From positions 5,140 to 69,139 of IMG/VR virus record IMGVR_UViG_3300045988_086533: a stretch of DNA of 64,000 nucleotides; one strand, 5' to 3'. Both the position numbers and the translations under genes were made by a program. The notes beneath the pieces were generated by a model, which saw nothing but the letters and a program-made list of their open reading frames with translations, did no database searches and was not told the origin of the DNA. This stretch comes from a virus. The number at the start of each line of letters is the position of its first letter. Position 1 is the stretch's first letter. Positions 3,230 through 61,839 of the stretch are shown here, piece after piece.

Positions 3230-3260
3230 AGTGGGTGGTTAGTAAATCACCCACTTTTTC
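3230..3260 (+). terminator. intrinsic terminator after dut
   Basis: AGTGGGTG / CACCCACT 8-bp stem followed by a T-run. Confidence 0.55.
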
Positions 3261-3272
3261 TATACTATATAT
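3238..3272 (+). promoter_or_regulatory. phage-specific promoter motif, copy 1
   Basis: GTTAGTAAA-N14-TATACTATATAT. Upstream box sits in the loop of the dut terminator. Precedes the recA-like gene. Confidence 0.55.
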
Positions 3273-3300
3273 AGAATACAAATAAAGGAGTGATTACATA

Positions 3301-4467
3301 ATGAGGGAGATTGATTTAAAAATGGCTGCATTGAATAAAAAATTTGGTGCAGATATAATACAACAAGGAACTGACATAATAGAAGTGGATAAAATACCAT
3401 TTAGTAGTCCTATGGCAAATTATATGACTTATGGTGGAATACCAATTGGAAAAATAACTGAGTTCTTTGGAGGTGAAGGGGGAGGAAAAACAACCTCCGC
3501 TCTTGATATTTGTGGTAATGCGCAAAAGAAATTCCAGGAGGTTTACGATAAAAAAGTTGGGGAATTGGTACAACAAATAGAACTATTACAACAAACTAAC
3601 ACAAAACAAGCACAAAAGGAAATTACAAAATTAAGCGCAGAATTAGATAAAGTACAGGAAAAAGGTGAAAAACTAGTATTATATATAGATACAGAACAAA
3701 CTTTGGATACTGAATGGGCTAAGTTATTAGGCGTAGACACAGAGAAAATGATATTAGTAAGACCACAAGAACAAACTGCAGAACAGGTACTACAAATAAT
3801 AATTGAATTAATTAGTACTGGGAATGTGGGGTTATGCGTATTAGATAGTATACCTTGTCTAGTTCCTCAACAAATATTTGATGAGAGTATGGAGAAGAAA
3901 GCCTATGGCGGTATATCACAACCTTTAACTATATTTTGTAGTAAAATTTTACCTCATTTAACAGTTAATCAATGTGCTTTCATAGGAATTAATCAAATAC
4001 GTGAGGACTTAAGTAGTATGTTTAGTACCATAAGTACTCCAGGTGGTAAAGGTTGGAAACATGCTTGTAGTTTAAGAATTAAATTTAGAAAAGATACATT
4101 ATTGGACGAAAACAACAAAGAGTTAAGTAGTAAAGCTGAAAACCCAGCCGGTAATAGAGTTGGCATGGAAATTATAAAAACAAAGGTATGTAAACCAAAT
4201 AGAAGACTAGGTTATTATACACTAAAATATTTAGAGGGTGTAGATACTCTATACGATATGATTAATGTATGTATGTATTATAAAATAGTACAACAAGCGG
4301 GTTCTTGGTATAGAGTAATAGATGAGCAAAGTAATATAGTATTAGACAAGGAAGGCAATGAATTGAACTTCCAAGGTATGACTAGATTTTTAGACTATTT
4401 ACATAAACATGAAGATGTAGTTCATGAATTACTAACTAGACTAAATGGGGTGATGTTGGATGAGTAA
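3301..4467 (+). CDS. recA: RecA-family recombinase with coiled-coil insertion
   Basis: Walker A GGEGGGKTT and Walker B-like LVLYIDTE. RecA-like L1/L2 region (INQIRED, STPGGKGWKH). Confidence 0.8.
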   Translation: MREIDLKMAALNKKFGADIIQQGTDIIEVDKIPFSSPMANYMTYGGIPIGKITEFFGGEGGGKTTSALDICGNAQKKFQEVYDKKVGELVQQIELLQQTNTKQAQKEITKLSAELDKVQEKGEKLVLYIDTEQTLDTEWAKLLGVDTEKMILVRPQEQTAEQVLQIIIELISTGNVGLCVLDSIPCLVPQQIFDESMEKKAYGGISQPLTIFCSKILPHLTVNQCAFIGINQIREDLSSMFSTISTPGGKGWKHACSLRIKFRKDTLLDENNKELSSKAENPAGNRVGMEIIKTKVCKPNRRLGYYTLKYLEGVDTLYDMINVCMYYKIVQQAGSWYRVIDEQSNIVLDKEGNELNFQGMTRFLDYLHKHEDVVHELLTRLNGVMLDE

Positions 4468-5086
4468 TAATGGTAATAAGTGCCAAGAAATAGTTATGCG
4501 CTATAAAAACGGTGAAAAAGATGCAATAAATGAATTACCCCAGTACATAGACAATATGGTATATTCTCTATTAAAACCATATAAATTATATAATGATAGA
4601 GATGAAATGTATCAAGTTGCTTGGCAGTGTATAATGAAGTGTGTCGACCATTATGACCCATCCTATGGCACATTATTCACGACATTTGCTTATCCAGCTA
4701 TAAAAAGAGAACTACGACAATATAGGAATAGAATGGATAAACATAATAGATATACCACAGATGGAGAACAGAATATATATAAGATATTATCTATAGACGG
4801 ATATATACAACTCAAGCATCATGGACATATTAGATATACATCATTAGAAAATTATTTGGAGAGCAAGGAAGATGTAGAGCTTAGTGCTTTAGTACGTGAG
4901 TTAAAAGAAATTATTAGGGAAGAACTAAAGAGTGTGAAGAATGACAAACAACGTGCTATAATAGCTGATTATCTGTGTGGCATAAAAGGTACATACATAG
5001 CATATCAGTACAGTGTATCACCTGCATATGTATCCAGAGTAGTAAAAGATTTTTTTAGAAAAGTTAAAGAACAAGTTAGCGAATAA
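4460..5086 (+). CDS. sigma-70 family (region 2 / region 4) RNA polymerase sigma factor
   Basis: Region-2-like DPSYGTLFTTFAYPAIKRELRQY. C-terminal HTH-like segment IAYQYSVSPAYVSRVVK. 208 aa. Confidence 0.6.
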   Translation: MSNNGNKCQEIVMRYKNGEKDAINELPQYIDNMVYSLLKPYKLYNDRDEMYQVAWQCIMKCVDHYDPSYGTLFTTFAYPAIKRELRQYRNRMDKHNRYTTDGEQNIYKILSIDGYIQLKHHGHIRYTSLENYLESKEDVELSALVRELKEIIREELKSVKNDKQRAIIADYLCGIKGTYIAYQYSVSPAYVSRVVKDFFRKVKEQVSE

Positions 5087-5109
5087 GAGATACCTCCTAT
5101 ACTATATAT
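5075..5109 (+). promoter_or_regulatory. phage-specific promoter motif, copy 2
   Basis: GTTAGCGAA-N14-TATACTATATAT. Overlaps the last codons of the sigma gene. Precedes 5143. Confidence 0.5.
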
Positions 5110-5122
5110 ATAGGAGGTTTTA
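5092..5122 (+). terminator. hairpin/terminator after the sigma gene
   Basis: ACCTCCTATA / TATAGGAGGT stem followed by TTTT. Encloses the TATACTATAT box. Confidence 0.45.
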
Positions 5123-5142
5123 ATTTAAGGAGGTGTTTTTAT

Positions 5143-7280: not shown

Positions 7281-7604
7281 ATGTTACCATTAAAAAATGA
7301 TGCTAGGGAAATTAAGAAGTTTGCCAAACAATTTGCAGAGGCTTATAAAGATTGTTTTGCTTGGTATAGTGAAGAAAAATATGTTCGTGGGTTTGCTGCA
7401 AGACACTTTGAAACTGTATGTGCTATCAATGAAGATGAGAATGGGATCAAGATAAGCAAGAAAAATAAAAAATTATTTATAGATGAATTTAGTAAAATTA
7501 CATTAAATAATATACTATATATGAAGGAACAACACAACATAAAGGAAAAACAGGACATTAAGAAACATGGGATAAAACGTAAAAAACAAAAGGGAGGAAA
7601 ATAA
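7281..7604 (+). CDS. hypothetical basic protein between the clamp-loader genes
   Basis: AAGGGGG SD. 107 aa with a Lys-rich tail. Contains an internal NKKLF. Confidence 0.55.
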   Translation: MLPLKNDAREIKKFAKQFAEAYKDCFAWYSEEKYVRGFAARHFETVCAINEDENGIKISKKNKKLFIDEFSKITLNNILYMKEQHNIKEKQDIKKHGIKRKKQKGGK

Positions 7605-7605
7605 T

Positions 7606-7764
7606 ATGTTTAATTTTATGGTTTTAATAGTTGCAATGAGTATAGTAATTGATTGGATAACACAAACAATAGGCGATAGGGATATTGATGGTATAAGTGC
7701 TATAGTAATTTCATTAGCTATATGGTATTTAATCCAAATAGTGGGAGGAATAAAATTATGTTAG
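7606..7764 (+). CDS. small membrane protein (52 aa)
   Basis: Not in the ORF track. AAGGGAGG SD 7 nt before the ATG. Two hydrophobic segments (MFNFMVLIVAMSIVI.., ISAIVISLAIWYLIQIVGG). Confidence 0.45.
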   Translation: MFNFMVLIVAMSIVIDWITQTIGDRDIDGISAIVISLAIWYLIQIVGGIKLC

Positions 7765-8657
7765 GTTTATTAGAACTACAGGGGCAAATAAGGGAAGGTA
7801 ATTTACTTCCCTTTTATATTTTTACTGGGGAAGAAATTGAGCTGCAAAATATATACTTAAAACAAATGGGTAATGTAGTGCGTATAGATAGAGTGGCTGA
7901 CATATATAACAAAATAACAAGTAAACTAATAGGCGGTAAATTTGCAGTATATGTAGTTAGAGATGATATGGATTTTATTAAGAGTGAAAAAACGTGGGGC
8001 AGTATAAGTAATAAAATTAGAAATGCAGTATTAGTAGTACAAGTTACAACGCCGAGTAAATGTAAAAAATTTATAAAGGAATTAAATAATTGTGTAGTAG
8101 AATTCAATCATATGACAACAAAACAATTGTTAAGTGTGGTTAATATGAAAGGTAGTGTAAGTAATAAACAATATTTTATAGAAGCCTGCAATAATGATTT
8201 AAATACAATTAACAATTATATGGATATATTCAAGAGATCAGGAATAAAAGAGCTGAATAAAAAGATAGTAGATGAGTATATACCAACAAAAGAAGAAGTA
8301 ACTGTATTTCAACTAGCAGATGCCATAATGAAAAAAGATGAACAATTGACATTTAGATTATTAGACCAGTTATTGGAGGATAAAAATAATGCAATGGGTA
8401 TTATATATGCCATATATTCTCAACTCCATAAATGTGTATTAGTAGAAGGATATAGAGGGGAAGAAGATATCTCTAAAATAACTGGTATTAATAGTTGGAT
8501 ATGTAATAATATACTACGTTATAACCGTATAAAGCCCGCTAAATTACTTACTGCACTACGATTAGTACAAAAGTATGATCAGGGAGTAAAGACAGGCAAA
8601 TATGAAGGTGTAGTAGCTTGTTATAGTTTAATAATAGAAATTTTAAGTTATTGTTAG
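7758..8657 (+). CDS. holA: clamp loader subunit, delta-like
   Basis: ATG at 7758 after GGGAGG. N-terminus LLPFYIFTGEE and ~300 aa size fit HolA. Confidence 0.55.
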   Translation: MLGLLELQGQIREGNLLPFYIFTGEEIELQNIYLKQMGNVVRIDRVADIYNKITSKLIGGKFAVYVVRDDMDFIKSEKTWGSISNKIRNAVLVVQVTTPSKCKKFIKELNNCVVEFNHMTTKQLLSVVNMKGSVSNKQYFIEACNNDLNTINNYMDIFKRSGIKELNKKIVDEYIPTKEEVTVFQLADAIMKKDEQLTFRLLDQLLEDKNNAMGIIYAIYSQLHKCVLVEGYRGEEDISKITGINSWICNNILRYNRIKPAKLLTALRLVQKYDQGVKTGKYEGVVACYSLIIEILSYC

Positions 8658-8687
8658 CAAAATGGTAAATTTTTCTATACTATATAC
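8653..8687 (+). promoter_or_regulatory. phage-specific promoter motif, copy 3
   Basis: GTTAGCAAA-N14-TATACTATATAC. Precedes 8703. Confidence 0.5.
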
Positions 8688-11465: not shown

Positions 11466-11494
11466 TTGATTAATTATATAAGTAGATGTATAAT
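11466..11494 (+). promoter_or_regulatory. sigma-A (sigma-70)-type promoter
   Basis: TTGATT-17 nt-TATAAT immediately after a terminator. Spacer AATTATATAAGTA is shared with the promoters at 50256 and 61127. Confidence 0.6.
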
Positions 11495-12778: not shown

Positions 12779-12813
12779 CTTAGTAAATACAACATTATTT
12801 CTATACTATATAT
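12779..12813 (+). promoter_or_regulatory. phage-specific promoter motif, copy 4
   Basis: CTTAGTAAA-N14-TATACTATATAT. Precedes 12853. Confidence 0.5.
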
Positions 12814-14039: not shown

Positions 14040-14180
14040 AATACAAATAGTACAATAAACCTATATAATTAAGTCCTAAATGATTATTAATTGTACTAAA
14101 ATAAGTCTTAAAATAGCAATTCTTACATTAATAATTACTAAGAATAACTAATATAAATTTGTGATAGGAGGATGGTCCAA

Positions 14181-16413: not shown

Positions 16414-18006
16414 ATGAGTTTGTATAACAGTATAGATAGAGCATTAGTAGGACTATACAGTACAGATAGAAGATTCTTAGAAGAATTACAACAGGTTAAA
16501 TCGTACTACGAGTTCTACGAAGGTAGACCTGAACAATTAGAAGATGATTTAGAAGATTCAACTGGCCAACTATGGGCAGTAAAAGACAGAGATTATAGAC
16601 CAACAAGAGAGATAAGAAACTTAACTAAAAAGCTACTTAAAAAACAAGGAAGATTTATGACTAGTGTTCCACCTACAATAGTAGTAAAGAGCGTAGATGG
16701 CACTGATCCAACGTTGGTGGATGATAAACGAATTGCCTATGAAAAAATATTAGATGATGGAAAGTTTTGGAATAAGTTTAGTAAAGCATTTATGGATTGT
16801 GTCATTGGTAAACGTGTATTATTAGCATTAATGTTGGATGTAGATGACTATGGCAACCCTATAGACAATGCACCTATAAAGTTTAGATTTTATACAATGC
16901 CAGAATTCCTATATGAATATGACCCAAATGACTGTGACAAACTAATCAAAGTGCAAATAGCTTACCAAGATGAAAGCACAGTAGGTAAATTACAAAATGA
17001 GCAAAGATGGCATAAATGGATCTATGAAATGAGAGGTGAAGAGTGTTGGTGTACATACATGGTAGTAGATGGTACTAACACAATAGCCTATGCAGAAGTA
17101 CCAAACATACTTAATAGTAGTATTGCAGGAGAACAACAAGATGAACAACAAATGCAACAAGTGGAAATACGTAGTGAGTGGAATACTGGATTAAGCTGCA
17201 TACCATGTACAGTTATATTTAATGACGGACTTACAGGAGATATTAGAGGACGTAGTGATGTAAAAGATTTAATGGATATGCAAATGGATTATAATAAAAC
17301 TATTAGTGATTATAGAGACAGTTTAAGATTTGCGATGTTTGACCAAACGGCCTTTATTGATGCTGACAGTGCTTCTATTGAAGGAATAGTAGTGGCACCT
17401 GGGTCAATATTAGATATTAAAACAGATACATCTTTAGGAATGGGTAGTGCAAATGGTAGTTATAAACAAGCATCTATACAAAAGGTCGGTAGTGAATTTA
17501 CATTCCAAGGTGCAGCAGATGCTTATCTTGAGAGATTGAAAAAAGATATGTACGAATGTATGGAACAACCACTACCAGAATCACTAGTTAATGTAGCAAG
17601 TGGTAAAGCGTTACGTATGTTATATGATGACCTTATTACACGTTGTGAAGAAAAATGGTCCGCATGGGATGAAGCTATTCTATGGATGCTAAAATTAATT
17701 GAGGAAATCGTATTAAAGAGTAATTTATATCCAGATGACCCTTCTATCAATCAAGCTATGCAGTACAAAGTAAGTTTAGATTTAACTCATAACTATCCAA
17801 TTCCAGACGATGAGATTGATACTAAGACAATAGCAATAAAAGAAGTAGAAGCCAATGTACGTAGTAAACAAAGTTATATTAGAGAGTTTGGTAGTGCTGA
17901 GGAAGCTGATAAAGAATTTGATGAGATACTAGATGAGATGGATAAAGTTAATATGACACAAAATAGTATGGCTGATTTAAACGGATCAATTAGCAAAACT
18001 GAATAA
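16414..18006 (+). CDS. portal protein (SPP1 gp6-like)
   Basis: 530 aa directly after TerL. AAAGGAGG SD. Confidence 0.75.
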   Translation: MSLYNSIDRALVGLYSTDRRFLEELQQVKSYYEFYEGRPEQLEDDLEDSTGQLWAVKDRDYRPTREIRNLTKKLLKKQGRFMTSVPPTIVVKSVDGTDPTLVDDKRIAYEKILDDGKFWNKFSKAFMDCVIGKRVLLALMLDVDDYGNPIDNAPIKFRFYTMPEFLYEYDPNDCDKLIKVQIAYQDESTVGKLQNEQRWHKWIYEMRGEECWCTYMVVDGTNTIAYAEVPNILNSSIAGEQQDEQQMQQVEIRSEWNTGLSCIPCTVIFNDGLTGDIRGRSDVKDLMDMQMDYNKTISDYRDSLRFAMFDQTAFIDADSASIEGIVVAPGSILDIKTDTSLGMGSANGSYKQASIQKVGSEFTFQGAADAYLERLKKDMYECMEQPLPESLVNVASGKALRMLYDDLITRCEEKWSAWDEAILWMLKLIEEIVLKSNLYPDDPSINQAMQYKVSLDLTHNYPIPDDEIDTKTIAIKEVEANVRSKQSYIREFGSAEEADKEFDEILDEMDKVNMTQNSMADLNGSISKTE

Positions 18007-18023
18007 TTTTCTATACTATATAT
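17989..18023 (+). promoter_or_regulatory. phage-specific promoter motif, copy 5
   Basis: ATTAGCAAA-N14-TATACTATATAT. Overlaps the portal stop. Precedes 18053. Confidence 0.5.
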
Positions 18024-18052
18024 AGAATAAAAAATTTGGGAGGTTGATTGAT

Positions 18053-18484
18053 ATGAGTAAACAAGGTGGATGGACTAAAGGACGTAAAGGGGAAAAACAA
18101 CTGAAATTTAAAGCTAAATGTGATAAATGCGGAAGAGAATTTTATCCTAGAGAAAAAGAATTAGCTATATTAAAAGGATGTATTATTATTAGAGGGTTTG
18201 AATGTAGATGTGGTAAACAGTATGTAACTGTAGTAACTGATAATCAACTACGTAGAGAGATGGCACAACTACAAGATCTCTTAGAAACTTTTACAAAGAT
18301 CCAATATAAGAATAGATATGATGTAAATGAACAAATTAAAATACGTGGATTTGTACCACAAGAGATACAAGATAGAGTAAATAAAAAGGAAAAAGATTAT
18401 ATGGATGCAATAACAGAGCTTAGACGTGATATAGCTAAGAGAGGTAAAGAATTAAAAGAAAAATATAAAAATTATATAGACTAA
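18053..18484 (+). CDS. zinc-ribbon / coiled-coil protein inserted between portal and MuF genes
   Basis: ATG at 18053 after GGGAGG. CDKCG..CRCG ribbon, then a charged helical tail. Confidence 0.55.
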   Translation: MSKQGGWTKGRKGEKQLKFKAKCDKCGREFYPREKELAILKGCIIIRGFECRCGKQYVTVVTDNQLRREMAQLQDLLETFTKIQYKNRYDVNEQIKIRGFVPQEIQDRVNKKEKDYMDAITELRRDIAKRGKELKEKYKNYID

Positions 18485-18487
18485 GTG

Positions 18488-18516
18488 TTGACACTTAATA
18501 AAAATGGTACTATAAT
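18488..18516 (+). promoter_or_regulatory. sigma-A-type promoter, perfect consensus
   Basis: TTGACA-17 nt-TATAAT. Confidence 0.65.
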
Positions 18517-18522
18517 TTATAG

Positions 18523-18582
18523 GTTAGGACTAAATAAAAAGTGTGAAAAAATGAGAGAGGTTAATAAACCTCTCTTTTTTTA
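18523..18582 (+). ncRNA. candidate ~60-nt RNA from the consensus sigma-A promoter
   Basis: TTGACA-17-TATAAT is followed ~35 nt later by a terminator hairpin. There is no SD for the in-frame ATG at 18551. Confidence 0.35.
18553..18582 (+). terminator. intrinsic terminator of the short RNA
   Basis: AGAGAGG / CCTCTCT stem followed by TTTTTTT. Confidence 0.6.
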
Positions 18583-18610
18583 TACAATAAATTATATAGG
18601 AGGTGGAGGT

Positions 18611-20680: not shown

Positions 20681-20714
20681 TTAGTAAATCAGTAAGTTTT
20701 TCTATACTATATAT
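20680..20714 (+). promoter_or_regulatory. phage-specific promoter motif, copy 6
   Basis: GTTAGTAAA-N14-TATACTATATAT. Precedes 20732. Confidence 0.5.
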
Positions 20715-21312: not shown

Positions 21313-21465
21313 TTGTCTATTTTTAGTTAATATTTTTTCGTAAAAATTAATATATAGATATGACAAAGGTTCTTGGTTATCCATAAAACCTCGTATTAAT
21401 GATGTTTTCTTTGTTTTCTCAAAACAATGATTTAATCGTCGATGGACGTTAAACTGGAGGTAAGT

Positions 21466-50255: not shown

Positions 50256-50284
50256 TTGAATAATTATACAAGTAGTAGTATAAT
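50256..50284 (+). promoter_or_regulatory. sigma-A-type promoter
   Basis: TTGAAT-17 nt-TATAAT after the endolysin terminator. Confidence 0.6.
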
Positions 50285-52157: not shown

Positions 52158-52436
52158 ATGAAAATAATAGATGGAAATATGTATTATAGTTTAACAGAGA
52201 TAGGGTCTATTATTGGTAGAACTAAAGCTACCATTTTAAGATGGTATGAGTATGAAGATCAGTTACCTGTAGAACAACGTAGATTACCAAACTACATAAC
52301 ATTAGGACAACAACACGCTAAATATTTTGCGGCACATGACATTGACACATTTACTGAGTTCATGAAAACTAATAAAAGAGGGACTATGAAAAATGTCAGT
52401 GATAAATACAACGGTAACTTAGCAAATAATAAATAA
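52158..52436 (+). CDS. small HTH DNA-binding protein (MerR/excisionase-like)
   Basis: YYSLTEIGSIIGRTKATILRWYEY helix-turn-helix pattern. Confidence 0.4.
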   Translation: MKIIDGNMYYSLTEIGSIIGRTKATILRWYEYEDQLPVEQRRLPNYITLGQQHAKYFAAHDIDTFTEFMKTNKRGTMKNVSDKYNGNLANNK

Positions 52437-52452
52437 ATTATATACTATATAT
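52418..52452 (+). promoter_or_regulatory. phage-specific promoter motif, copy 7
   Basis: CTTAGCAAA-N14-TATACTATATAT. Overlaps the end of 52158..52436. Precedes 52531. Confidence 0.5.
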
Positions 52453-52460
52453 AGGGATAT

Positions 52461-52499
52461 AACCTCATAGAACCTACCTAAAATAGGTTTTATGGGGTT
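52461..52499 (+). promoter_or_regulatory. 5'-leader stem-loop
   Basis: 16-bp stem AACCTCATAGAACCTA / TAGGTTTTATGGGGTT. The two G-U pairs only work on the + strand RNA. No T-run follows. Confidence 0.45.
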
Positions 52500-52530
52500 C
52501 ATAGATTAATTACTTAAGGAGGCTAAAAAA

Positions 52531-53296: not shown

Positions 53297-53331
53297 GTTA
53301 GTAAAACGCTCAAATTTTCTATACTATATAA
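53297..53331 (+). promoter_or_regulatory. phage-specific promoter motif, copy 8
   Basis: GTTAGTAAA-N14-TATACTATATAA. Confidence 0.5.
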
Positions 53332-53369: not shown

Positions 53370-53404
53370 GTTAGTAAAATCGCAAATAATTCTATACTAT
53401 ATAT
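53370..53404 (+). promoter_or_regulatory. phage-specific promoter motif, copy 9
   Basis: GTTAGTAAA-N14-TATACTATATAT. Precedes 53512. Confidence 0.5.
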
Positions 53405-53460
53405 AGATATTAAATATTAGTTATCCTAAAAATAAATAAAGAATCCCGCAATGGGAGATT

Positions 53461-53483
53461 ATTATGCAACAAAGTTGCATAAT
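53461..53483 (+). promoter_or_regulatory. 5'-leader stem-loop
   Basis: Perfect 10-bp stem ATTATGCAAC / GTTGCATAAT with a 3-nt loop, between promoter copy 9 and the SD of 53512. Confidence 0.4.
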
Positions 53484-53511
53484 TCTTTTCAACTAAAAAA
53501 GGAGGAATATT

Positions 53512-54600: not shown

Positions 54601-54840
54601 ATGAATGATATAGAACTAACTAAGCAGAGACAAAAAGAAATAGCTAAATATGGTAAACGACAAGGTTTTCCAATTTGGGTATGTTTTAAGATGAATTATT
54701 TAGGTGATATAACAGAGATTAAGACATTCTTTACTGCAAGTGCTAAAGATGAGTATATTAGTCAAAAGGTAGATGATTATAACTTTGTAGCATATCTGAC
54801 ATATTCCAATGATGTTAAAAAAGTTTCATATTCTATTTAA
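54601..54840 (+). CDS. hypothetical protein
   Basis: GGAGGA SD. 79 aa. Confidence 0.5.
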   Translation: MNDIELTKQRQKEIAKYGKRQGFPIWVCFKMNYLGDITEIKTFFTASAKDEYISQKVDDYNFVAYLTYSNDVKKVSYSI

Positions 54841-54862
54841 ATGCGAGGGAGATGAGTTTTTT

Positions 54863-55555
54863 ATGAATAATGAAAACTATGAATTATATCAAGGTGATTG
54901 CTTGGTCGTTATGGATAAACTGATTGAGGATGGGATAAAAGTAGATGCAGTAATATCAGATCCACCTTATGGGATGGAGTTTAAAAGTAATCGTAGAAAG
55001 GAAAAATATGAAAAAATTAGTAATGATGATGATTTATCATTTTTAGATGAATATTTTCAAAAATGTAATAGGCTGTTAAAAGATGATACTCATATATATT
55101 GCTTTTGTAGTTGGCATAATATAGATAAATTTAAGATTGCCTTTGAAAAATACTTTACATTAAAAAATATAATAGTATGGGAAAAGAATAATGCATCTAT
55201 GGGTGATTTGTATGGATCATATGCTCCTAAGCACGAATTTATATTATTTGGGCATAAGGGGAGAAGATTAAGAAATGGTAAAAGATTACCGGATGTTATA
55301 CAAGCCAAAAGAACTGGAAATAAATTACATCCAACACAAAAACCCGTTGATTTATTAGAGATTTTTATAAAACAATCAACAAATGAAAATGATGTAATTT
55401 TAGATTCATTTATGGGTAGTGGTAGCACTGGGGTTGCTTGTTTAAAAACCAAAAGGAGATTTATAGGCATTGAAAAAGAGGAAAAATATTTTAATATAAC
55501 TAAAGAACGACTAGCATATGCTAGCTTAAATAATAGACAAAAAAAATTATTTTAG
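54863..55555 (+). CDS. beta-class DNA methyltransferase, motif IV DPPY (likely N6-adenine)
   Basis: SDPPYG and FMGSGSTG. ATG at 54863. Ends ..NNRQKKLF. Confidence 0.8.
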   Translation: MNNENYELYQGDCLVVMDKLIEDGIKVDAVISDPPYGMEFKSNRRKEKYEKISNDDDLSFLDEYFQKCNRLLKDDTHIYCFCSWHNIDKFKIAFEKYFTLKNIIVWEKNNASMGDLYGSYAPKHEFILFGHKGRRLRNGKRLPDVIQAKRTGNKLHPTQKPVDLLEIFIKQSTNENDVILDSFMGSGSTGVACLKTKRRFIGIEKEEKYFNITKERLAYASLNNRQKKLF

Positions 55556-55556: not shown

Positions 55557-55591
55557 GTTAGTAAACTGTATAGTTTTTCTATACTATATAT
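55557..55591 (+). promoter_or_regulatory. phage-specific promoter motif, copy 10 (P1 of cassette A)
   Basis: GTTAGTAAA-N14-TATACTATATAT. Starts 2 nt after the methyltransferase stop. Confidence 0.55.
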
Positions 55592-55595
55592 GTAA

Positions 55596-55642
55596 CTTAT
55601 TATTAAATTATTTTATTATTTTAATTTTTATTATTTTCTTAT
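55596..55642 (+). repeat. AT-only iterated tract (ATTATTTT-type units)
   Basis: cttattattaaattattttattattttaatttttattattttctt. Confidence 0.5.
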
Positions 55643-55726
55643 ATGACCCAGTAGTGTATAATAAGAGAGTAGGTGATTAACTTCATATAACCAACTAAGA
55701 AATTATTAACAATCCCCATATTTATA

Positions 55727-55760
55727 TTCCAACGGCTTGGTAACCCGTTGGAATTTTTTT
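55727..55760 (+). terminator. intrinsic terminator of cassette A RNA
   Basis: TTCCAACGG / CCGTTGGAA stem followed by T7. Confidence 0.65.
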
Positions 55761-55770
55761 ATTTATTTTA

Positions 55771-55805
55771 GTTAGTAAAATTTGGTATTTTTATATACTA
55801 TATTT
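55771..55805 (+). promoter_or_regulatory. phage-specific promoter motif, copy 11 (P2 of cassette A)
   Basis: GTTAGTAAA-N14-TATACTATATTT. Precedes 55844. Confidence 0.5.
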
Positions 55806-55843
55806 GTAACACAAGATAAATAAAATTTGGAGGAGTGATTTAT

Positions 55844-56539
55844 ATGAGATTAAATTTAATAGGTAATGAAGCTGATAGACAACTTGTATTAGCTAAGGAA
55901 CAAGAAGGGAAAATAAATTTAGTTAACCTACTTAAGAAATATGGTGATGTAGTAGATTATATGACTGAACCAATGGTAGCTAATTTTTATGGAGTGCCAA
56001 ATAAAACTATTAAAACGTTAGCAACTAGAAATGAAAGTGAGTTAAAAGGATATGGATATAAAGTATATAAAAAAAGTGAAATCCTAAAGTTTCAAGATGA
56101 AACTTTAGAGAATGTACCAAATAGAGGATTAAGATTATATCCAACTAAAGCGGTAATAGTGGTAGGTATGATGTTAACTGATAGTCCAGTTGCCGAACAA
56201 TTAAGAAGGGATATAATGGACATATTATTTGGCAAGGAAGTTGCGATACCAACTGAGAGCACTATTAGAAATGTAGTTAGTACTGAACTTGACAAAAGAG
56301 TACCACAATTGGTTGGGTGTAAAGATGCTCAAGTAAAAGCCATTGTTAAAGCCATTAAAGGTAATTTATTTATTAAAACTAAAAAACAAGATTATGCAAA
56401 TTATGAGACTGTAGTAGCATGGTTATTAGGGAAATATGGTGTGTATAAATTAGAGGATATACCATTTAGTGATGACTTATATGTTGAGATAAAAGATTTT
56501 GTTAAGAAATTACATCCAAGACAAAAAAGATTATTTTAG
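55844..56539 (+). CDS. ORF6N/Rha-like DNA-binding domain protein (putative regulator/antirepressor)
   Basis: ATG at 55844 after GGAGGAG. MVANFYGVPNKTIK..NRGLRLYPTKAVIVVGMMLTDSPVA resembles ORF6N. Ends ..RQKRLF. Confidence 0.45.
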   Translation: MRLNLIGNEADRQLVLAKEQEGKINLVNLLKKYGDVVDYMTEPMVANFYGVPNKTIKTLATRNESELKGYGYKVYKKSEILKFQDETLENVPNRGLRLYPTKAVIVVGMMLTDSPVAEQLRRDIMDILFGKEVAIPTESTIRNVVSTELDKRVPQLVGCKDAQVKAIVKAIKGNLFIKTKKQDYANYETVVAWLLGKYGVYKLEDIPFSDDLYVEIKDFVKKLHPRQKRLF

Positions 56540-56541: not shown

Positions 56542-56576
56542 GTTAGTAAAACACAACTTTTTTCTATACTATATAT
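56542..56576 (+). promoter_or_regulatory. phage-specific promoter motif, copy 12 (P1 of cassette B)
   Basis: GTTAGTAAA-N14-TATACTATATAT. Confidence 0.55.
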
Positions 56577-56670
56577 GTAAGGGAAATAACCCCTCCCTTA
56601 CATACACAACCCCTTAATATTTTATTTTTTACCCCGGTACCTATTCCCCCTTTGGTATCGGGGGTTTTTT
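56577..56670 (+). ncRNA. candidate small RNA B
   Basis: 5' hairpin GTAAGGGA/TCCCTTAC, AACCCCTT box, terminator. No ATG within it. Ends are approximate. Confidence 0.4.
56632..56670 (+). terminator. intrinsic terminator of cassette B RNA
   Basis: CCCCGGTACC / GGTATCGGGG stem followed by T6. Confidence 0.6.
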
Positions 56671-56674
56671 CTTT

Positions 56675-56709
56675 GTTAGTAAAATTAGAATTTTTAATAT
56701 ACTATAAGT
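56675..56709 (+). promoter_or_regulatory. phage-specific promoter motif, copy 13 (P2 of cassette B)
   Basis: GTTAGTAAA-N14-TATACTATAAGT. Precedes 56727. Confidence 0.45.
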
Positions 56710-57440: not shown

Positions 57441-58735
57441 TGGTACAATTGCAAGCCATAAATGATATATTAAATAATAATAACTTGGATCAATACACAG
57501 GCCAAGGAATAACAAAAGAGTACTTCAAGGACTATCAAGAAGAATTTGAGTTTATAAGTACCCATTTTAGAACTTATGGAAAAGTACCTGACTGGGAAAC
57601 ATTCATGGGAAAATTTCCGGACTTTGATGTCGTGGAAGTATTAGAGCCATTAAAATATATTATATATAACCTTAAGGAAAATTATTTATTTGATCAGGGG
57701 GTTTCATTATTTCAATCTAGCGGTGATATATTAGAACAGAACGCCTTTGATGGCTTACAACACATAGTAACAAGAGCACAACGTCTACTAGATCAAACGG
57801 TACAAAGTGGTGGTGTAAATATTAACAACATGGTAGATGAGAAAATAAAGGACTTAGAGAATAAACGTGCTAAAGGTGGTATGCTTGGAATTGGAAGTGG
57901 CTTACCTGAATTAGATAAGATACTTAATGGATGGCTGCCTGGCGAAGAATTAGTTACTATAGTTGGTAGAGTTAATCAAGGTAAATCTTGGTTGCTACAA
58001 AAGTTTTTAACCGAAGCCAACAAACAATATAAAAAAGTACTCCATTACAGTGGTGAAATGGGGGTATTACAAGTGGCATATAGAAATGATACATTAGGTA
58101 TGAACTACACTAACTCCCAATTAATGAGGGGTACAATAGGTGATGGTGACTATAAACAATATATTAACGACCTAGAAACTAATAAAGAATTACCACCATA
58201 TATAGTAGTAACTCCGGTAGACTTTGGAGGTAAAATGTTAACTGTATCTAAATTGAGAGCACTTATAAAAGAGTATAAACCGGATATAGTTGGTATAGAC
58301 CAGATATCATTAATGGAAGATGAACGACGTGGAAAGGGAGATCAAACAAGAACACAGTACACACATATAGCTCAAGATTTATTTAATATTAGTATAGAAT
58401 TTAGCATTCCAATTATAGTGGATGCCCAAGCCAACCGTAATAAGGCGGATATAGATAAGCCGGAAAACCCCGAACTTGCTGATATAGGAGAGAGTGATGG
58501 CATTGCACAAAATAGTAGTAGAGTAATTTCTTTAGTACAAACTAAAGCGGGGTTGAGCCTTAAAATAACTAAAAATAGATATGGCGAAAATAATAAGCAG
58601 CTACTATATGTGTGGGATATAGATAATGGTATATTTACTTTTGTAACTGAACAACTGGAAGATGGAGCTGACATTGAGCCACAACTACCTTTGAAAAATA
58701 AAAATAAAATAAATGATGTAACTGATGTATTTTAA
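57440..58735 (+). CDS. dnaB: replicative DNA helicase (DnaB-like)
   Basis: GSGLPELD, Walker A GRVNQGKS, IDQISLM, and a RecA-like C-terminal domain. Confidence 0.8.
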   Translation: MVQLQAINDILNNNNLDQYTGQGITKEYFKDYQEEFEFISTHFRTYGKVPDWETFMGKFPDFDVVEVLEPLKYIIYNLKENYLFDQGVSLFQSSGDILEQNAFDGLQHIVTRAQRLLDQTVQSGGVNINNMVDEKIKDLENKRAKGGMLGIGSGLPELDKILNGWLPGEELVTIVGRVNQGKSWLLQKFLTEANKQYKKVLHYSGEMGVLQVAYRNDTLGMNYTNSQLMRGTIGDGDYKQYINDLETNKELPPYIVVTPVDFGGKMLTVSKLRALIKEYKPDIVGIDQISLMEDERRGKGDQTRTQYTHIAQDLFNISIEFSIPIIVDAQANRNKADIDKPENPELADIGESDGIAQNSSRVISLVQTKAGLSLKITKNRYGENNKQLLYVWDIDNGIFTFVTEQLEDGADIEPQLPLKNKNKINDVTDVF

Positions 58736-58763
58736 AAAAAATTATAAGGAGGAATTGAGGAAT

Positions 58764-59612
58764 ATGGAAATTATTAATGATAAATATAAATTATATCAAG
58801 GTGACTGCTTAGAGATTATGGATAAATTGATTGAGGAGAGAGTAGTAGTAGACTTAACTGTAACAAGTCCTCCCTACGATGATCTAAGGGATTATGAGAA
58901 CTCTTTAACATGGAATTTCGATATATTTAAGCAAGTAGCAAATAAATTATATAAAATAACTAAAGATGGTGGCGTGGTAGTGTGGATAGTTGGAGATAAA
59001 ACTAAGAATGGAAGTGAAACAGGAACATCCTTTAAACAAGCATTATATTTTAAAGAAATAGGATTTAATTTGCATGATACTATGATATATGAAAAGAATA
59101 CTAGCAGCTTTCCTGCAAGAAAAACTGGTAATAGATATACTCAAATATTTGAGTATATGTTTGTTTTTAGTAAAGGGAAACCCAAAACAGTAAATTTAAT
59201 TTGTGATAAACCTAATAAATGGGCGGGACATACAAATTGGGGGAAAAACACACAAAGAGATGAGAATGGTGATCTGAAAGAAACTAATAAAATTAAACCA
59301 GTACCTAAATTTTCTCCAAGAAATAATATATGGAGATATGTTGTTGGTAATAGTTTTAACACAAAAGATAAAATAGCACATAAACATCCAGCTATATTTC
59401 CTGAAAAGTTAGCTGAAGACCATATATTAAGCTGGTCAAATGAAGGAGATGTAATACTAGATTGTTTTATGGGGAGTGGTACTACTGGTAAAATGGCTTT
59501 ATTAAATAATAGAAATTTTATAGGAATCGAGAAAGTAGAAAGTTATTTTAATATATCTAAAGAGCGACTAGAATATGCTAAATTAAATAATAGACAAAAG
59601 AAATTATTTTAA
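58764..59612 (+). CDS. beta-class DNA methyltransferase, motif IV SPPY (possibly N4-cytosine)
   Basis: TSPPYD and FMGSGTTG. ATG at 58764. Ends ..NNRQKKLF. Confidence 0.8.
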   Translation: MEIINDKYKLYQGDCLEIMDKLIEERVVVDLTVTSPPYDDLRDYENSLTWNFDIFKQVANKLYKITKDGGVVVWIVGDKTKNGSETGTSFKQALYFKEIGFNLHDTMIYEKNTSSFPARKTGNRYTQIFEYMFVFSKGKPKTVNLICDKPNKWAGHTNWGKNTQRDENGDLKETNKIKPVPKFSPRNNIWRYVVGNSFNTKDKIAHKHPAIFPEKLAEDHILSWSNEGDVILDCFMGSGTTGKMALLNNRNFIGIEKVESYFNISKERLEYAKLNNRQKKLF

Positions 59613-59613: not shown

Positions 59614-59648
59614 GTTAGCAAAATGGCAATTTTTTCTATACTATATAT
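59614..59648 (+). promoter_or_regulatory. phage-specific promoter motif, copy 14 (P1 of cassette C)
   Basis: GTTAGCAAA-N14-TATACTATATAT. Confidence 0.55.
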
Positions 59649-59748
59649 GTAGAGGAAATGTGGAGGCACATTCTTCTACTCATAATATAACTCCCCTTTT
59701 TTTACCCTGACATTGGAGCGGACAGTGTCAGGGGTTTTTATTTTTTTT
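59649..59748 (+). ncRNA. candidate small RNA C
   Basis: 13-bp 5' hairpin (59649..59679), AACTCCCCTT box, terminator. Same architecture as B. Ends are approximate. Confidence 0.4.
59705..59748 (+). terminator. intrinsic terminator of cassette C RNA
   Basis: CCCTGACA / TGTCAGGG stem followed by T-runs. Confidence 0.6.
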
Positions 59749-59757: not shown

Positions 59758-59792
59758 GTTAGTAAATTTAAATAATAAAATATAATATATTT
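59758..59792 (+). promoter_or_regulatory. phage-specific promoter motif, copy 15 (P2 of cassette C, degenerate)
   Basis: GTTAGTAAA-N14-TATAATATATTT. Precedes 59808. Confidence 0.4.
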
Positions 59793-59807
59793 AAAGGAGT
59801 TGATTAT

Positions 59808-59963: not shown

Positions 59964-59965
59964 TT

Positions 59966-60133
59966 ATGCTACATGAAAGATGTGAACAATGTGAGGAAAG
60001 ATTAGATTATGATTATATAGTTTTAGAGTTACCTGACTATTGCAGCTATAAGAAACTTAAGTTTTGTAGCACTGATTGCTTAGACGAGTGGATAGAAAAC
60101 TTTAGTAGATGGGAGTTGTGCGAGGATGATTAA
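59966..60133 (+). CDS. hypothetical Cys-rich protein (55 aa)
   Basis: Not in the track. GGAGGGA SD. CEQCE..CSTDC. Confidence 0.4.
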   Translation: MLHERCEQCEERLDYDYIVLELPDYCSYKKLKFCSTDCLDEWIENFSRWELCEDD

Positions 60134-61118
60134 TGTTAATGGTATGGAACTTGATACAACGTACCAACAGTTATTAATAGACCTAAAAGGTAGTTTAATG
60201 AGTAATGGAATATTCTTACTAAATGATATAAAACCCACAGGAGATAACATCATGATAACTTGTCCAATTCATAAAGACGGACATGAGCATAAACCCTCTT
60301 GTGGGGTTTCTATTGTACCGAAGTATCAGGGATCTAAACTAATAGAACCTGGGACAGTGCATTGTTTTACTTGTGGATATACTGCTTCACTAACCAGTTT
60401 TATCAGTTCTTGTTTTGGATATAACGATGGTGGAATATTTGGGAATAAATGGATTAAAGCTCAGTATAATACCGGCCTAACTGTTAAAACCCGTAAGGTG
60501 GGGCTAAATTTAAGTAGACGAAGAATTACTCAAGAAGACCTACCAAACGTGCCACAGGAGGTGTTACAAGGTTACAGATACACTGTTGGTTATATGTATT
60601 CGCGTGGTTTAACGGATGACATTATTGAACAGTTTGACATTGGATATGACCGTAGAGATGACTGCATAACTATACCAGTTCCCAATTTAAAAGGTGAGGT
60701 AAAATGGATACAACGTAGAAGTATTATAGGGAAAACCTACTATATACCAAGTGGGGTTAGTAAAACTGATTATCTATTAGGAGCAAGTGAAGTTATGAAA
60801 TTAAAACTATATAAACAACCAGTATATATAGTGGAATCTCCCTTTAATATGTTAACTCTTTGGAAGTTAGGACACCCAGCAATATGTTTATTTGGTACTG
60901 GAGGAGGGAATCAGTATGCTATGTTGAATAAGTTACCTATTAGACATTATATAATAGCATTAGATCCCGATGAAGCAGGTAAAAAAGGAAGTAGAAAATT
61001 ATTACATCATTTAGGTAAGACTAAGTTATTGAGCAAGGTAAACTACTTAGATAGTAGAGACATCAACGATTTAGACACGGAATTTAACAAATTAAAAATT
61101 TCACCAATAAACTTATAA
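60126..61118 (+). CDS. dnaG: DNA primase (DnaG-like: zinc finger plus TOPRIM)
   Basis: CPIHKDGHEHKPSC..HCFTCG zinc finger. TOPRIM-like VESPFN..ALDPDEAG. Confidence 0.75.
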   Translation: MINVNGMELDTTYQQLLIDLKGSLMSNGIFLLNDIKPTGDNIMITCPIHKDGHEHKPSCGVSIVPKYQGSKLIEPGTVHCFTCGYTASLTSFISSCFGYNDGGIFGNKWIKAQYNTGLTVKTRKVGLNLSRRRITQEDLPNVPQEVLQGYRYTVGYMYSRGLTDDIIEQFDIGYDRRDDCITIPVPNLKGEVKWIQRRSIIGKTYYIPSGVSKTDYLLGASEVMKLKLYKQPVYIVESPFNMLTLWKLGHPAICLFGTGGGNQYAMLNKLPIRHYIIALDPDEAGKKGSRKLLHHLGKTKLLSKVNYLDSRDINDLDTEFNKLKISPINL

Positions 61119-61126
61119 AAAAATAG

Positions 61127-61155
61127 TTGCATAATTATATAAGTAACAATATAAT
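61127..61155 (+). promoter_or_regulatory. sigma-A-type promoter in front of the second sigma gene
   Basis: TTGCAT-17 nt-TATAAT. About 50 nt nearly identical to the promoter at 50256. Confidence 0.6.
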
Positions 61156-61206
61156 ATAAGTATAAATAAAAGATAAAAAAATATAAGTTACCAGGGGGAA
61201 TGATGT

Positions 61207-61809
61207 ATGTTTAATGATGTAGTAAAAGTATATGGAATGGAACACACTGATGAGGAATTATTAAAAGATTACCAAGCAGGATTACATAATGAAGTTATTG
61301 CATATGTATTTGAAATGAATAAAAATTTATTTTACCAAGTAAGTAAAAAATATGTTGGTGTAAGTACCGACGAAGTTACAAGTATTATATTAGAACAAAT
61401 ATGGAAATGTTTTGAAAATTATAATCCTGAAAAGAATAGTAGTGGTAAATTAACTAGTATGATATGTGTTTATATTAAGAATGCTCTTAGAACTCTAACA
61501 CAAAGTAACTCAAGCAATAAGAGAAAAGCCAACAATGGTGATCAATGTACTCCAATGAGTTGCTTTGAAACAACTGAGGATAGATGGGAAGAAACAAGCA
61601 TTGAAGATGAATATGATAAAGTTGAATTATCTGATTTAGTTAATAAAGAAGATCTATCACCAAAACAACTTCAATACTGCATGGTGGCACTAGACCATAT
61701 GTGTGACTTACAACAATCTCATATGGCGAGAGAAATTGGAGTTAGCACTGCAGGTGTTGTCGGTATTAGAAGAGCATTACAAAAGAAATTAAATTATTTA
61801 TTAGGTTAG
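61207..61809 (+). CDS. sigma-70 family (ECF-sized) sigma factor
   Basis: Region-2-like FENYNPEK..LTSMICVYIKNALR. Region-4 HTH LSPKQLQYCMVAL..MAREIGVSTAGVVGIRRAL. Confidence 0.55.
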   Translation: MFNDVVKVYGMEHTDEELLKDYQAGLHNEVIAYVFEMNKNLFYQVSKKYVGVSTDEVTSIILEQIWKCFENYNPEKNSSGKLTSMICVYIKNALRTLTQSNSSNKRKANNGDQCTPMSCFETTEDRWEETSIEDEYDKVELSDLVNKEDLSPKQLQYCMVALDHMCDLQQSHMAREIGVSTAGVVGIRRALQKKLNYLLG

Positions 61810-61839
61810 TAAATAGGGAGGTCTTACTATACTATATAT
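61805..61839 (+). promoter_or_regulatory. phage-specific promoter motif, copy 16
   Basis: GTTAGTAAA-N14-TATACTATATAT. Overlaps the sigma gene stop and its terminator. Precedes nrdJ. Confidence 0.5.

Follow-up and report, generated by a model that had tools for sequence, protein, structure and literature searches.

The question raised by this locus is whether a rigid two-part motif that recurs along a phage genome represents a promoter class and, if so, which sigma factor reads it. The phage, an uncultivated siphovirus of 68-72 kb whose source is the human gut, is distantly syntenic with Streptococcus phages Dp-1/MS1 and carries all of its genes on one strand. A pattern scan of the window (the whole stretch of DNA analysed, 64,000 nt), allowing up to three mismatches, identified 17 + strand copies of TTAGYAAA-N14-TATACTATATAT, against a chance expectation of 0.46 (maximum 3) in dinucleotide-preserving shuffles. 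A weight matrix built from these sites and applied to both strands of the window, a check that the first-pass annotation had proposed, retrieved only the same 17 at scores of 28-51 bits, none of them on the minus strand, and no further position above 12 bits. All 16 copies listed in that annotation were recovered (our coordinates are its own plus one, since it counted one leading N), and a copy at 7489-7522 raises the total to 17. We refer to the single class of 17 motif copies as class B, and the putative promoters are as follows:

3239..3272, + strand: class-B promoter ahead of recA (3301-4467) and sigma gene 4460-5086; -35 box in the loop of terminator hairpin 3230-3255
5076..5109, + strand: class-B promoter overlapping the stop of sigma gene 4460-5086, before a 110-aa ORF and clamp-loader genes; -10 within hairpin 5089-5121
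7489..7522, + strand: class-B promoter, the 17th copy, with zero mismatches, inside ORF 7281-7604
8654..8687, + strand: class-B promoter overlapping the stop of ORF 7722-8657; ribosome-binding site from +2
12780..12813, + strand: class-B promoter 5' of small ORFs that precede the terminase region
17990..18023, + strand: class-B promoter across the final codons of the portal gene, before a 146-aa ORF and a MuF-like minor capsid gene
20681..20714, + strand: class-B promoter, the final copy ahead of the head, tail, and lysis block
52419..52452, + strand: class-B promoter with a 78-nt leader containing a strong hairpin
53298..53331, + strand: class-B promoter, first of two tandem copies spaced by 73 nt
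53371..53404, + strand: class-B promoter, second of the two tandem copies, preceding ORF 53512
55558..55591, + strand: class-B promoter before a non-coding cassette of ~177 nt (55592-55768)
55772..55805, + strand: class-B promoter before ORF 55835-56539
56543..56576, + strand: class-B promoter before a candidate small RNA (56577-56672)
56676..56709, + strand: class-B promoter before helicase loader, DnaB, and methyltransferase genes
59615..59648, + strand: class-B promoter before a candidate small RNA (59649-59748)
59759..59792, + strand: class-B promoter, the weakest copy (-10 = TATAAT), before small ORFs and the primase gene
61806..61839, + strand: class-B promoter overlapping the stop of sigma gene 61207-61809, with a ribonucleotide reductase gene downstream by synteny; -10 in the loop of terminator-like hairpin 61816-61852

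Non-coding DNA makes up 4.5% of the window, and 16 of the 17 copies are intergenic or lie over the last codons of the upstream gene. This placement had been described for each of the 16 copies listed earlier, and the exception is the one within ORF 7281-7604, which is kept at the orthologous place in a divergent lineage (L165:13035). The weight-matrix scan also bore out the reported gap from 20.7 to 52.4 kb, such that the head, tail, and lysis block is without a class-B copy. Every one of the 313 copies found in oriented loci from close relatives is on the gene strand, as are all 33 from divergent ones. The exact motif returned only eight matches, all singletons, in 185,579 species genomes, which argues that the motif is not a host regulon.

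The geometry of the motif is that of a sigma-70-type promoter, with the box at -34..-27 and TATACT at -12..-7. (A)GTTAGYAAA would thus be the -35 element, TATACT the -10 element, and ATATAT the discriminator, with transcription beginning at the purine immediately 3' of the 12-mer; a purine is present at this predicted +1 in 17/17 copies, and AG directly precedes the box in 13/17. The spacer is 14 nt in all 17 copies, as had been claimed, and its description as free in sequence but T-rich and mostly ending in C is also accurate: the 5' part is near random, the 3' part is rich in T, and the spacer ends in C in 12 copies and in A in five. The elements that follow, either ribosome-binding sites or small-RNA 5' stem-loops, start at +1 to +4. 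Four copies have a ribosome-binding site whose first base lies between +2 and +4, which excludes a start farther downstream, and the 5' stem-loops of two predicted terminator-ended RNAs begin exactly at +1.

Two ORFs are candidates to read such a class, and the naming of both as sigma factors in the first-pass annotation is upheld by profile matches to the sigma-70 family:

4460..5086, + strand: sigma-70-family gene, SigF/SigB-like, in the recA operon behind a class-B promoter
61207..61809, + strand: sigma-70-family gene with region 2 and a C-terminal helix-turn-helix (...GVSTAGVVGIRRALQKKL); proposed class-B reader

ORF 4460 matches Pfam Sigma70_r2 (E 3e-7), phrog_351 (E 1.5e-21), and SigF (PDB 1l0o, E 4e-6), and in the lineages compared it always follows recA behind a class-B promoter. 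ORF 61207 matches phrog_351 at E 1.6e-8; its family profile matches the solved structure of the sigma WhiG (6pfv) at E 4e-10 across regions 2 and 4, and it aligns with the 4460 family at an hhalign probability of 95.8%. No phage RNA polymerase gene was detected among the seven ORFs of at least 637 aa, which are tape-measure, Dit, or tail-type proteins or have no match. The window also contains promoters of host type (class A). Four good sigma-A promoters had been reported; the scans give a conserved family of three and, in addition, an isolated site:

11466..11494, + strand: class-A host-type promoter, TTGATT-17-TATAAT
50256..50284, + strand: class-A host-type promoter, TTGAAT-17-TATAAT, preceding a 58-aa ORF and the SNF2 helicase gene
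61127..61155, + strand: class-A host-type promoter, TTGCAT-17-TATAAT, immediately before the 61207 sigma gene
18488: isolated, perfect TTGACA-17-TATAAT

The canonical TTGNNW-17-TATAAT class coexists with class B in every lineage, and in all lineages sampled, including L152, L168, L169, L170, and L173, the 61207 homologue has a class-A promoter ahead of it.

The motif was also compared with both sigmas across lineages. Among 285 distinct copies in relatives, A3 and G4 of the box are essentially invariant and the spacer drifts. The -10 is TATACT in the window and TATAAT, TATATT, or TATATA in relatives, and is sigma-A-like, which weighs against a phage sigma as the reader. The TTAACA box of sister lineages, followed by a spacer of 16-17 bp, differs from the host TTGACA at a single base, so the earlier statement that the box is unlike a sigma-A -35 applies to the lineage of the window and not to its sisters, whose boxes could plausibly be read by host sigma-A. 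The predicted recognition helix of the 61207 family reads GVSTAGV in lineages with the TTAGYA box and ISRAG or VSRAG in those with a TTAAC box (L168, L170, and L173). The Arg to Thr change defines a monophyletic clade that is exactly the TTAGYA clade. The changed residue aligns with R584 of sigma-70, in a register taken from non-significant or family-level alignments; in sigma-70, R584 makes contact with the fifth base pair of the -35 hexamer. This co-variation amounts to a single evolutionary event (one Arg-to-Thr change and one box change), and it is suggestive rather than statistical in pointing to the 61207 sigma as the putative class-B reader.

Collectively, these observations lead us to favor, with moderate confidence, the interpretation that the 17 copies are one promoter class used by host core RNA polymerase and a phage-encoded sigma in an SPO1-like cascade. 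A phage-specific class read by a phage sigma, as first proposed, agrees with every in-silico test that was run, and a middle promoter class is the best reading of the motif, where transcription, reader, and timing are all deduced from sequence. Host sigma-A would read the three class-A promoters, one of them directly 5' of sigma gene 61207-61809, and the product of this gene would then turn on the 17 class-B promoters. Their targets would be genes for replication, recombination, and nucleotide metabolism, some of the packaging and head genes, three small cassettes that are non-coding, and the second sigma gene (4460-5086). The latter is a candidate late sigma that may serve transcription of the head, tail, and lysis block. 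The motif search gave no distinct class of late promoters for it, which weighs against this scheme. Nor does "middle" denote a clean functional group, since three of the copies (12780, 17990, and 20681) stand in front of packaging and head genes.

The two sigma genes could have the opposite roles, with class B read by the 4460-5086 sigma, self-maintained from the promoter at 3239, and 61207 serving another class, e.g., late genes. ORF 4460 is the better supported of the two as a sigma, its position in a class-B operon would give positive autoregulation, and both proteins have a predicted region 4 helix-turn-helix that could bind a -35 box. However, nothing would start expression of 4460, because no class-A promoter lies upstream of it, and it is before 61207 that the host-type promoter stands in all lineages. 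Moreover, the 4460 recognition helix is nearly unchanged between the window (SPAYVSRVVKD, TTAGYA box) and L164 (SSAYVSRVVKE, TTAACA box). We consider this assignment unlikely.

We give similarly little credence to the idea that host sigma-A alone reads class B. On that view, these would be strong promoters whose -10 is near consensus, whose discriminator is optimised, and whose -35 is idiosyncratic; copying inside the phage genome would account for their uniformity, and only late genes would be left to the phage sigmas. TATACT has five of six bases of the sigma-A -10, TTAGCA-16-TATACT scores 9/12 in a sigma-70 consensus scan (the host preference being taken as the Firmicute consensus, which may not be that of this host), and the sister lineages approach consensus (TTAACA-16/17-TATATA or TATAAT). 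Yet TTAGTA has only three of six bases of TTGACA despite the near invariance of A3 and G4, and selection by sigma-A would draw the box towards TTGACA. A separate canonical class is placed before the sigma gene, and both sigma genes would be left without recognisable targets, because the motif search found no further enriched motif.

Sigma appropriation in the style of T4 middle promoters, with sigma-A on the -10 and a phage activator on TTAGYAAA near -30 replacing the region 4/-35 contact, is improbable. In T4 the MotA box has its centre at -30 and is separated from the -10 by 12 +/- 1 bp, and the geometry here is similar (box at about -36..-27, 14 bp from a sigma-A-like -10); several early genes are also without an assigned function. 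However, the box differs from the MotA consensus, 20 proteins scanned against Pfam gave no MotA or AsiA match, two complete phage sigma factors make appropriation unnecessary, and sigma helix and box co-vary. It is highly improbable that the motif is instead a repeated site bound by a regulator of the phage, or an element of a terminator or insulator. Some copies are embedded in terminator-like hairpins, and the spacer T-run can act as a terminator U-tract in relatives, but most copies in the window are without a hairpin. Moreover, the two-part layout with its TAnnnT hexamer, the presence of a purine 7 nt further 3', and the constant spacing to ribosome-binding sites and RNA-structure 5' ends are typical of promoters.

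The proposed cascade resembles that of Bacillus phage SPO1, whose late consensus is CGTTAGA(N17-19)GATATT (PMC3601020); the first-pass annotation had correctly given its -35 box, which has a GTTAG core in common with class B. SPO1 is a lytic phage with a Gram-positive host that has no RNA polymerase of its own and redirects the host core by means of sigma-70-family proteins, and the same would hold here judging from the genes. As in SPO1 (gp28 middle; gp33/gp34 late), the gene for the first sigma of the proposed cascade follows a host-type promoter, that for the second would belong to the temporal class that comes next, and promoters are two-part with a non-host -35; aligning AGTTAGY to CGTTAGA gives a spacing of 17 here. 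Unlike SPO1, a 133 kb myovirus with GATATT or TTTNTTT as -10, this ~70 kb siphovirus has all genes on one strand and a sigma-A-like TATACT. Neither sigma shows specific kinship to SPO1 gp34 (hhalign probabilities of 9% and 15%), and the parallel is therefore one of analogy, not membership; tblastn returned no match to SPO1.

T4 middle promoters (MotA box, AsiA-remodelled sigma-70) likewise combine a host-like -10 with a phage-specific box at a similar position, but the box consensus is different and the phage here has its own sigmas, with no MotA/AsiA homologue among the proteins scanned. The promoter consensus of phages phiEco32 and 7-11 is essentially a single extended -10-like element, not a rigid two-part -35/-10. 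These phages have Gram-negative hosts and a different sigma lineage, but their sigma (gp36) sends host core polymerase to conserved phage-specific middle/late promoters (PMC8948821, PMC4331800), which is to that extent the arrangement proposed here.

The closest cultured relatives are Streptococcus phages Dp-1 and MS1, whose major capsid proteins are 47-48% identical to the one encoded here and which share a gene order of SNF2 helicase, helicase loader, DnaB, primase, and sigma (gp74 in MS1), followed by polymerase, queuosine genes, clamp, RecU, and RecA. The 61207 sigma is weakly homologous to MS1 gp74 (21% identity, E 3e-3), whose gene likewise has a host-type promoter annotated upstream. 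In contrast, the annotated MS1 promoters are ordinary extended -10 sigma-A types without a TTAGYAAA box, and the MS1 genome has divergently transcribed blocks and 42% G+C. In the literature searched, no sigma-dependent promoter class is described for the Dp-1/MS1 phages. The early-to-middle switch of lytic phages is already familiar; what would be new is its occurrence in a phage family for which none had been described.

Scanning the window for TTAGYAAA-N14-TATACTATATAT with up to three mismatches returned 17 sites, all on the + strand, compared to a mean of 0.46 and a maximum of 3 in dinucleotide-preserving shuffles. These sites, denoted here as class B, had weight-matrix scores of 28-51 bits, and every other position on either strand of the window scored at most 12 bits, indicating that the motif forms a class of its own rather than the upper end of AT-rich background. 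The first-pass annotation, made from the sequence alone, had listed 16 copies and interpreted them as a middle-class promoter of a phage sigma factor. All 16 were recovered, and the two-strand matrix scan that it had proposed yielded only the 17 + strand sites, with none on the minus strand. The additional copy (7489-7522) has zero mismatches and sits within ORF 7281-7604; the placement attributed to every copy, in an intergenic gap or overlapping the final codons of the preceding gene, therefore holds for 16 of the 17, in a window where all genes are on the + strand and only 4.5% of the sequence is non-coding. As described originally, the spacer is exactly 14 nt (17/17) and free in sequence except for a T-run, its first ~8 positions being near random and its last 5 T-rich, and no copies occur between 20.7 and 52.4 kb. 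The last spacer base is C in 12 copies and A in 5. Two further features had been missed, namely AG directly 5' of the box (13/17) and a purine directly 3' of the 12-mer (17/17). Functionally the class is not purely 'middle', since packaging and head genes lie behind three of the copies.

The window (G+C ~32%) encodes replication and recombination proteins (RecA, clamp-loader subunits, a DnaC-like loader, DnaB, primase, an SNF2 helicase, and two DNA methyltransferases), packaging and head proteins (large terminase, SPP1-type portal, MuF-like protein, and E-type major capsid protein), and tail and lysis proteins (tape measure, Dit, tail fibres, and endolysin). Megablast of its first 20 kb against GenBank phages returned no match, and tRNA and Rfam scans of the window found nothing. 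Close relatives comprised IMG/VR contigs of 41-72 kb, almost all from dataset 3300045988, with sigma proteins 89-100% identical and many motif copies; querying IMG/VR with the sigma gene, or with an alignment of it, recovered nothing below 89% identity. Divergent relatives were gut-metagenome contigs from ENA and Logan, with pig gut as the stated source of one. When the loci of relatives were oriented by the sigma gene, 313 of 313 copies were on the gene strand, as were 33 of 33 in the divergent relatives. Among 285 distinct copies in relatives, both boxes were nearly invariant and the first half of the spacer was random. Because the motif pattern itself was used to pick this set, the conservation of the boxes has a circular component, which does not affect the results for the spacer and +1.

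If TATACT is taken as the -10 element (-12 to -7), then ATATAT becomes the discriminator, the invariant purine becomes +1, and TTAGYAAA occupies -34 to -27, such that TTAGYA stands 16 bp from the -10. The arrangement TTAGYA-16-TATACT recurs in 17/17 copies and falls within the 16-18 bp hexamer spacing of sigma-70-type promoters. The -10 is of the TAnnnT form (TATACT in 16 copies, TATAAT in one; TATAAT, TATATT, or TATATA in relatives), and the purine lies 7 nt past this hexamer in all 17, which fits the 6-8 nt start distance of a sigma-70-type promoter. In sequence, class B thus has the two-part structure, TAnnnT -10, and upstream gene-strand placement of such promoters. Three details fit the proposed register. 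First, ribosome-binding sites begin at +2 to +4 in four copies (8654, 20681, 56676, and 59759), so the start would lie no further downstream. Second, the RNAs predicted from +1 at 56543 and 59615 open with a 5'-terminal stem-loop, which is followed by an unpaired C-rich linker and then an intrinsic terminator (folding energies of -30.3 and -35.2; z-scores of -6.5 and -5.4), and the stem starts exactly at +1. The third is the gene-strand orientation.

Several RNA features accompany these promoters. Candidate small RNAs at 56577-56672 and 59649-59748 (also 55592-55768) have a class-B promoter on their 5' side and a second one, for the next gene, directly 3'. They consist of a 5' stem-loop from +1, a ~30 nt unpaired linker with CCCC/UCCCC motifs, and an intrinsic terminator, and they have no Rfam match; one divergent lineage has a homologous cassette (L152:5923-6010). 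Through the C-rich motifs, these RNAs could base-pair with GGAGG ribosome-binding sites. Two DNA methyltransferase paralogues (54809-55555 and 58725-59612; phrog_67) have near-identical C-terminal codons (...NNRQKKLF), and each is followed directly 3' by a class-B promoter and then a non-coding cassette; the end of ORF 55835-56539 resembles the same C-terminus.

Terminator-like hairpins embed promoter boxes at 3230-3260, 5089-5121, and 61816-61852, as well as in intergenic regions of two divergent contigs (L165 and L164). At promoter 3239 the -35 box is in the hairpin loop (-15.9 kcal/mol), and the hairpins past both sigma genes contain the class-B -10 (-13.5 and -16.8 kcal/mol). On L165 and L164, several class-B -35 boxes are in a terminator loop, with the T-run of the spacer as the U-tract. 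Structured leaders lie 3' of promoters 52419 (52453-52530) and 53371 (53405-53511), with z-scores of -4.2 and -3.4, respectively. The latter has a terminator-like hairpin just 5' of the ribosome-binding site and may act as an attenuator.

Two ORFs are candidates for reading class B. ORF 4460-5086, in the recA operon, matches Pfam Sigma70_r2 (E 3e-7), phrog_351 'RNA polymerase sigma factor' (E 1.5e-21), and the solved structures of SigF (E 4e-6) and SigB (E 7e-4), with the SigB alignment reaching region 4 as well. ORF 61207-61809 matches phrog_351 (E 1.6e-8) and, as a single sequence, has no Pfam match. Its family comprises 429 representative clusters in a 1.8-billion-protein library, and a profile of 50 members matched the solved WhiG sigma structure in the PDB (E 4e-10) over two stretches corresponding to regions 2 and 4. 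The two families align end to end (hhalign probability 95.8%). An AlphaFold model of the 61207 protein was of low confidence (pLDDT 64), and sigma factors were its top Foldseek matches only at E above 0.09. By these family, structure-profile, and mutual alignments, both ORFs encode compact sigma factors that have one domain for reading the -10 and another for the -35. No phage RNA polymerase gene was found among the large ORFs of the window, the largest of which are tail proteins. The phage therefore has the attributes of those that use their own sigma factors, with two sigma-70-family genes and large ORFs that read as tail proteins instead of a polymerase.

Sigma-A-like promoters (class A) were identified at 11466, 50256, and 61127. 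They share TTGNNWAATTATAYAAGTA-N4-TATAAT (3 sites versus 0.03 by chance), have the canonical TTGNNW-17-TATAAT form, and are each preceded by a terminator and T-run. The likeness of the three (11466-11494, 50256-50284, and 61127-61155) extends far beyond the hexamers, with ATAAGTATAAA past the -10 in two of them, and the extended sequence, including the transcribed start, is kept in lineages whose sigma is only 38% identical. A perfect TTGACA-17-TATAAT is also present on the + strand at 18488-18516, at the junction of ORFs 18044-18484 and 18485-20515 (by rough estimate, ~0.1 expected per strand). Promoter 61127 is directly upstream of ORF 61207-61809, and a host-type promoter precedes the 61207 homologue in every lineage fetched (L152, L168, L169, L170, and L173), in some of them with a perfect TTGACA -35.

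We propose that the class-B motif would be read by the 61207 sigma. The regulatory layout favours this protein, since its gene is the one with a host-type promoter in front; the 4460 gene is invariably located after recA and downstream of a class-B promoter, and its product therefore could not start class-B transcription. The layout is that of the SPO1 paradigm, in which a sigma gene lies behind a host-type promoter, as the 61207 homologue does in all lineages fetched, and its targets, here the proposed TTAGYA class, are unlike the host consensus. Comparison of the recognition helix of the 61207 homologue with the promoter box across lineages is also suggestive.

Promoter box and 61207-homologue recognition helix by lineage (identity is to the window protein)
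Window, L152, L167, and L169: identity 51-67%; box TTAG(T/C)AAA-N14-TATAnnATATAT; helix GVSTAGV
L168 and L170: identity 38%; TTAACA box, TATATA-type -10, N14-15 spacer; helix ISRAG
L173: identity 50%; TTAACG box (contig ends before the -10); helix VSRAG

Two further contigs, L163 and L164, have the TTAACA box as well and are represented by 4460 homologues only. The variable Thr/Arg position of the helix aligns with sigma-70 R584 in a family-level alignment to WhiG and in an hhalign register check. Residue R584 of sigma-70 contacts the fifth base pair of the -35 hexamer. At this position of the box, every Arg lineage has C, and T predominates in the Thr lineages. By neighbour joining, the Thr lineages form a monophyletic clade with the same membership as the TTAGYA clade, and L173, approximately equally distant from the Thr and Arg groups, combines Arg with TTAAC. 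The recognition helix of the 4460 family is nearly unchanged between the window (SPAYVSRVVKD) and the TTAACA lineage L164 (SSAYVSRVVKE). This co-variation suggests dependence on the 61207 sigma, though it amounts to one evolutionary event and is thus not statistical support. Collectively, every computational test run supports the earlier proposal of a phage-specific promoter class that would be read by a phage sigma.

Host sigma-A might itself read the TTAACA box of the sister lineages, which with its 16-17 bp spacer is near consensus, and the -10 is sigma-A-like in all lineages. The box in the window matches the host TTGACA at only 3-4 of 6 positions (TTAGTA at 3), yet the bases at positions 3 and 4 of the box do not vary, pointing to a reader other than region 4 of sigma-A.

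The closest working analogy to the proposed 61207-dependent class is the SPO1 cascade. The SPO1 late consensus is CGTTAGA(N17-19)GATATT (PMC3601020), as the first-pass annotation had given for the -35. The parallel drawn there extends to the GTTAG core (5/7) and to a spacing of 17, compatible with 17-19, but not to the -10, where GATATT and TATACT match at 4 of 6 positions, nor to the proteins: hhalign aligned the two sigmas to gp34 with probabilities of 9% and 15%, and tblastn found no match to SPO1. Assignment to gp33/gp34-type late promoters was rejected accordingly. Since the layout is shared, the -10 differs, and a relation to gp34 is unsupported, the phage would appear to work like SPO1 from outside the SPO1 family. 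T4-type sigma appropriation fits less well; the class-B box (about -36 to -27) resembles the T4 MotA box in position but differs from its consensus, and no MotA or AsiA Pfam domain was found in 20 window proteins scanned. A promoter for a single-subunit (T7-like) RNA polymerase was rejected because such promoters are a continuous ~20 bp block and class B is two-part, with 8-9 free nt in its spacer, and because no polymerase gene was found among the large ORFs. A host regulon or prophage origin was rejected, as the exact motif is never a repeated element in 185,579 bacterial and archaeal species genomes and occurs there as just 8 unrelated singletons.

The closest cultured relatives by gene order are the Streptococcus phages Dp-1 and MS1, which encode a weak homologue of the 61207 sigma and a major capsid protein 47-48% identical to that of the window; in MS1 the genes are arranged in the same order, and a sigma gene again comes after primase. 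The annotated promoters of MS1 lack the class-B motif. Literature searches found no sigma-dependent promoters for the Dp-1/MS1 group and nothing relevant on the motif strings. The divergent relatives encode 7-deazaguanine (queuosine-precursor) functions, namely QueC, QueD-like, QueE, GTP cyclohydrolase I, or QueT (L165:629-3520, L164:2512-3033, and L168:17540-18037), and Dp-1 and MS1 likewise carry such genes; the corresponding region of this phage falls outside the 64 kb window. G residues of the phage DNA may therefore carry a modification, among them the invariant G of the -35 box.

No late class for the second (4460) sigma could be defined from the candidate word and conserved blocks examined. 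The word CTATATAAWT was rejected as it was not enriched (4 found versus 2.45 expected). One block, (A/G)CTATATAATTAA, lies 3' of a terminator and 5' of the terminase region at 14040-14140 (core ~14050-14075), L164:20190-20300, and L165:20210-20320. It is conserved in these three lineages with their differing class-B boxes, is surrounded by several (A/T)GTAC(A/T) words, and could be a late promoter or a packaging site. A second block, TTTTAGTTAATATTTT...TAATATATA at ~21320-21362, is invariant among relatives that are 82-99% identical, is 3' of a terminator after ORF 20894-21274, and has a box like the class-B -35 plus one T, making it a candidate late promoter. Both blocks are leads only.

A joint reading, which we regard as tentative and rather doubtful, is that a phage sigma was re-targeted naturally in this family: when a single Arg-to-Thr change arose at the R584 equivalent of the recognition helix, all middle promoters moved from TTAACA, a box open to host sigma-A, to the poorly sigma-A-readable TTAGYA, and this would have insulated the phage programme from the host sigma. 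The same reading holds that boxes doubling as terminator loops and U-tracts partition the genome into self-contained units, several of them making small RNAs with C-rich motifs and 5' hairpins that may target ribosome-binding sites.

The system is of a known kind. It leaves the general view of phage transcription regulation unchanged. With its short and rigid form and its apparent orthogonality to the host consensus, the promoter-sigma pair is a candidate part for controlling expression in Gram-positive bacteria of low G+C. Co-evolution of sigma and promoter could be tested in a simple setting on the pairing, specific to each lineage, between a recognition-helix residue and a -35 base. If confirmed, these predictions would provide a complete and compact regulatory map, with three host-type early promoters, 17 middle promoters, two sigma factors, and three small-RNA cassettes, for a widespread family of uncultivated human and pig gut phages related to pneumococcal Dp-1 and MS1.
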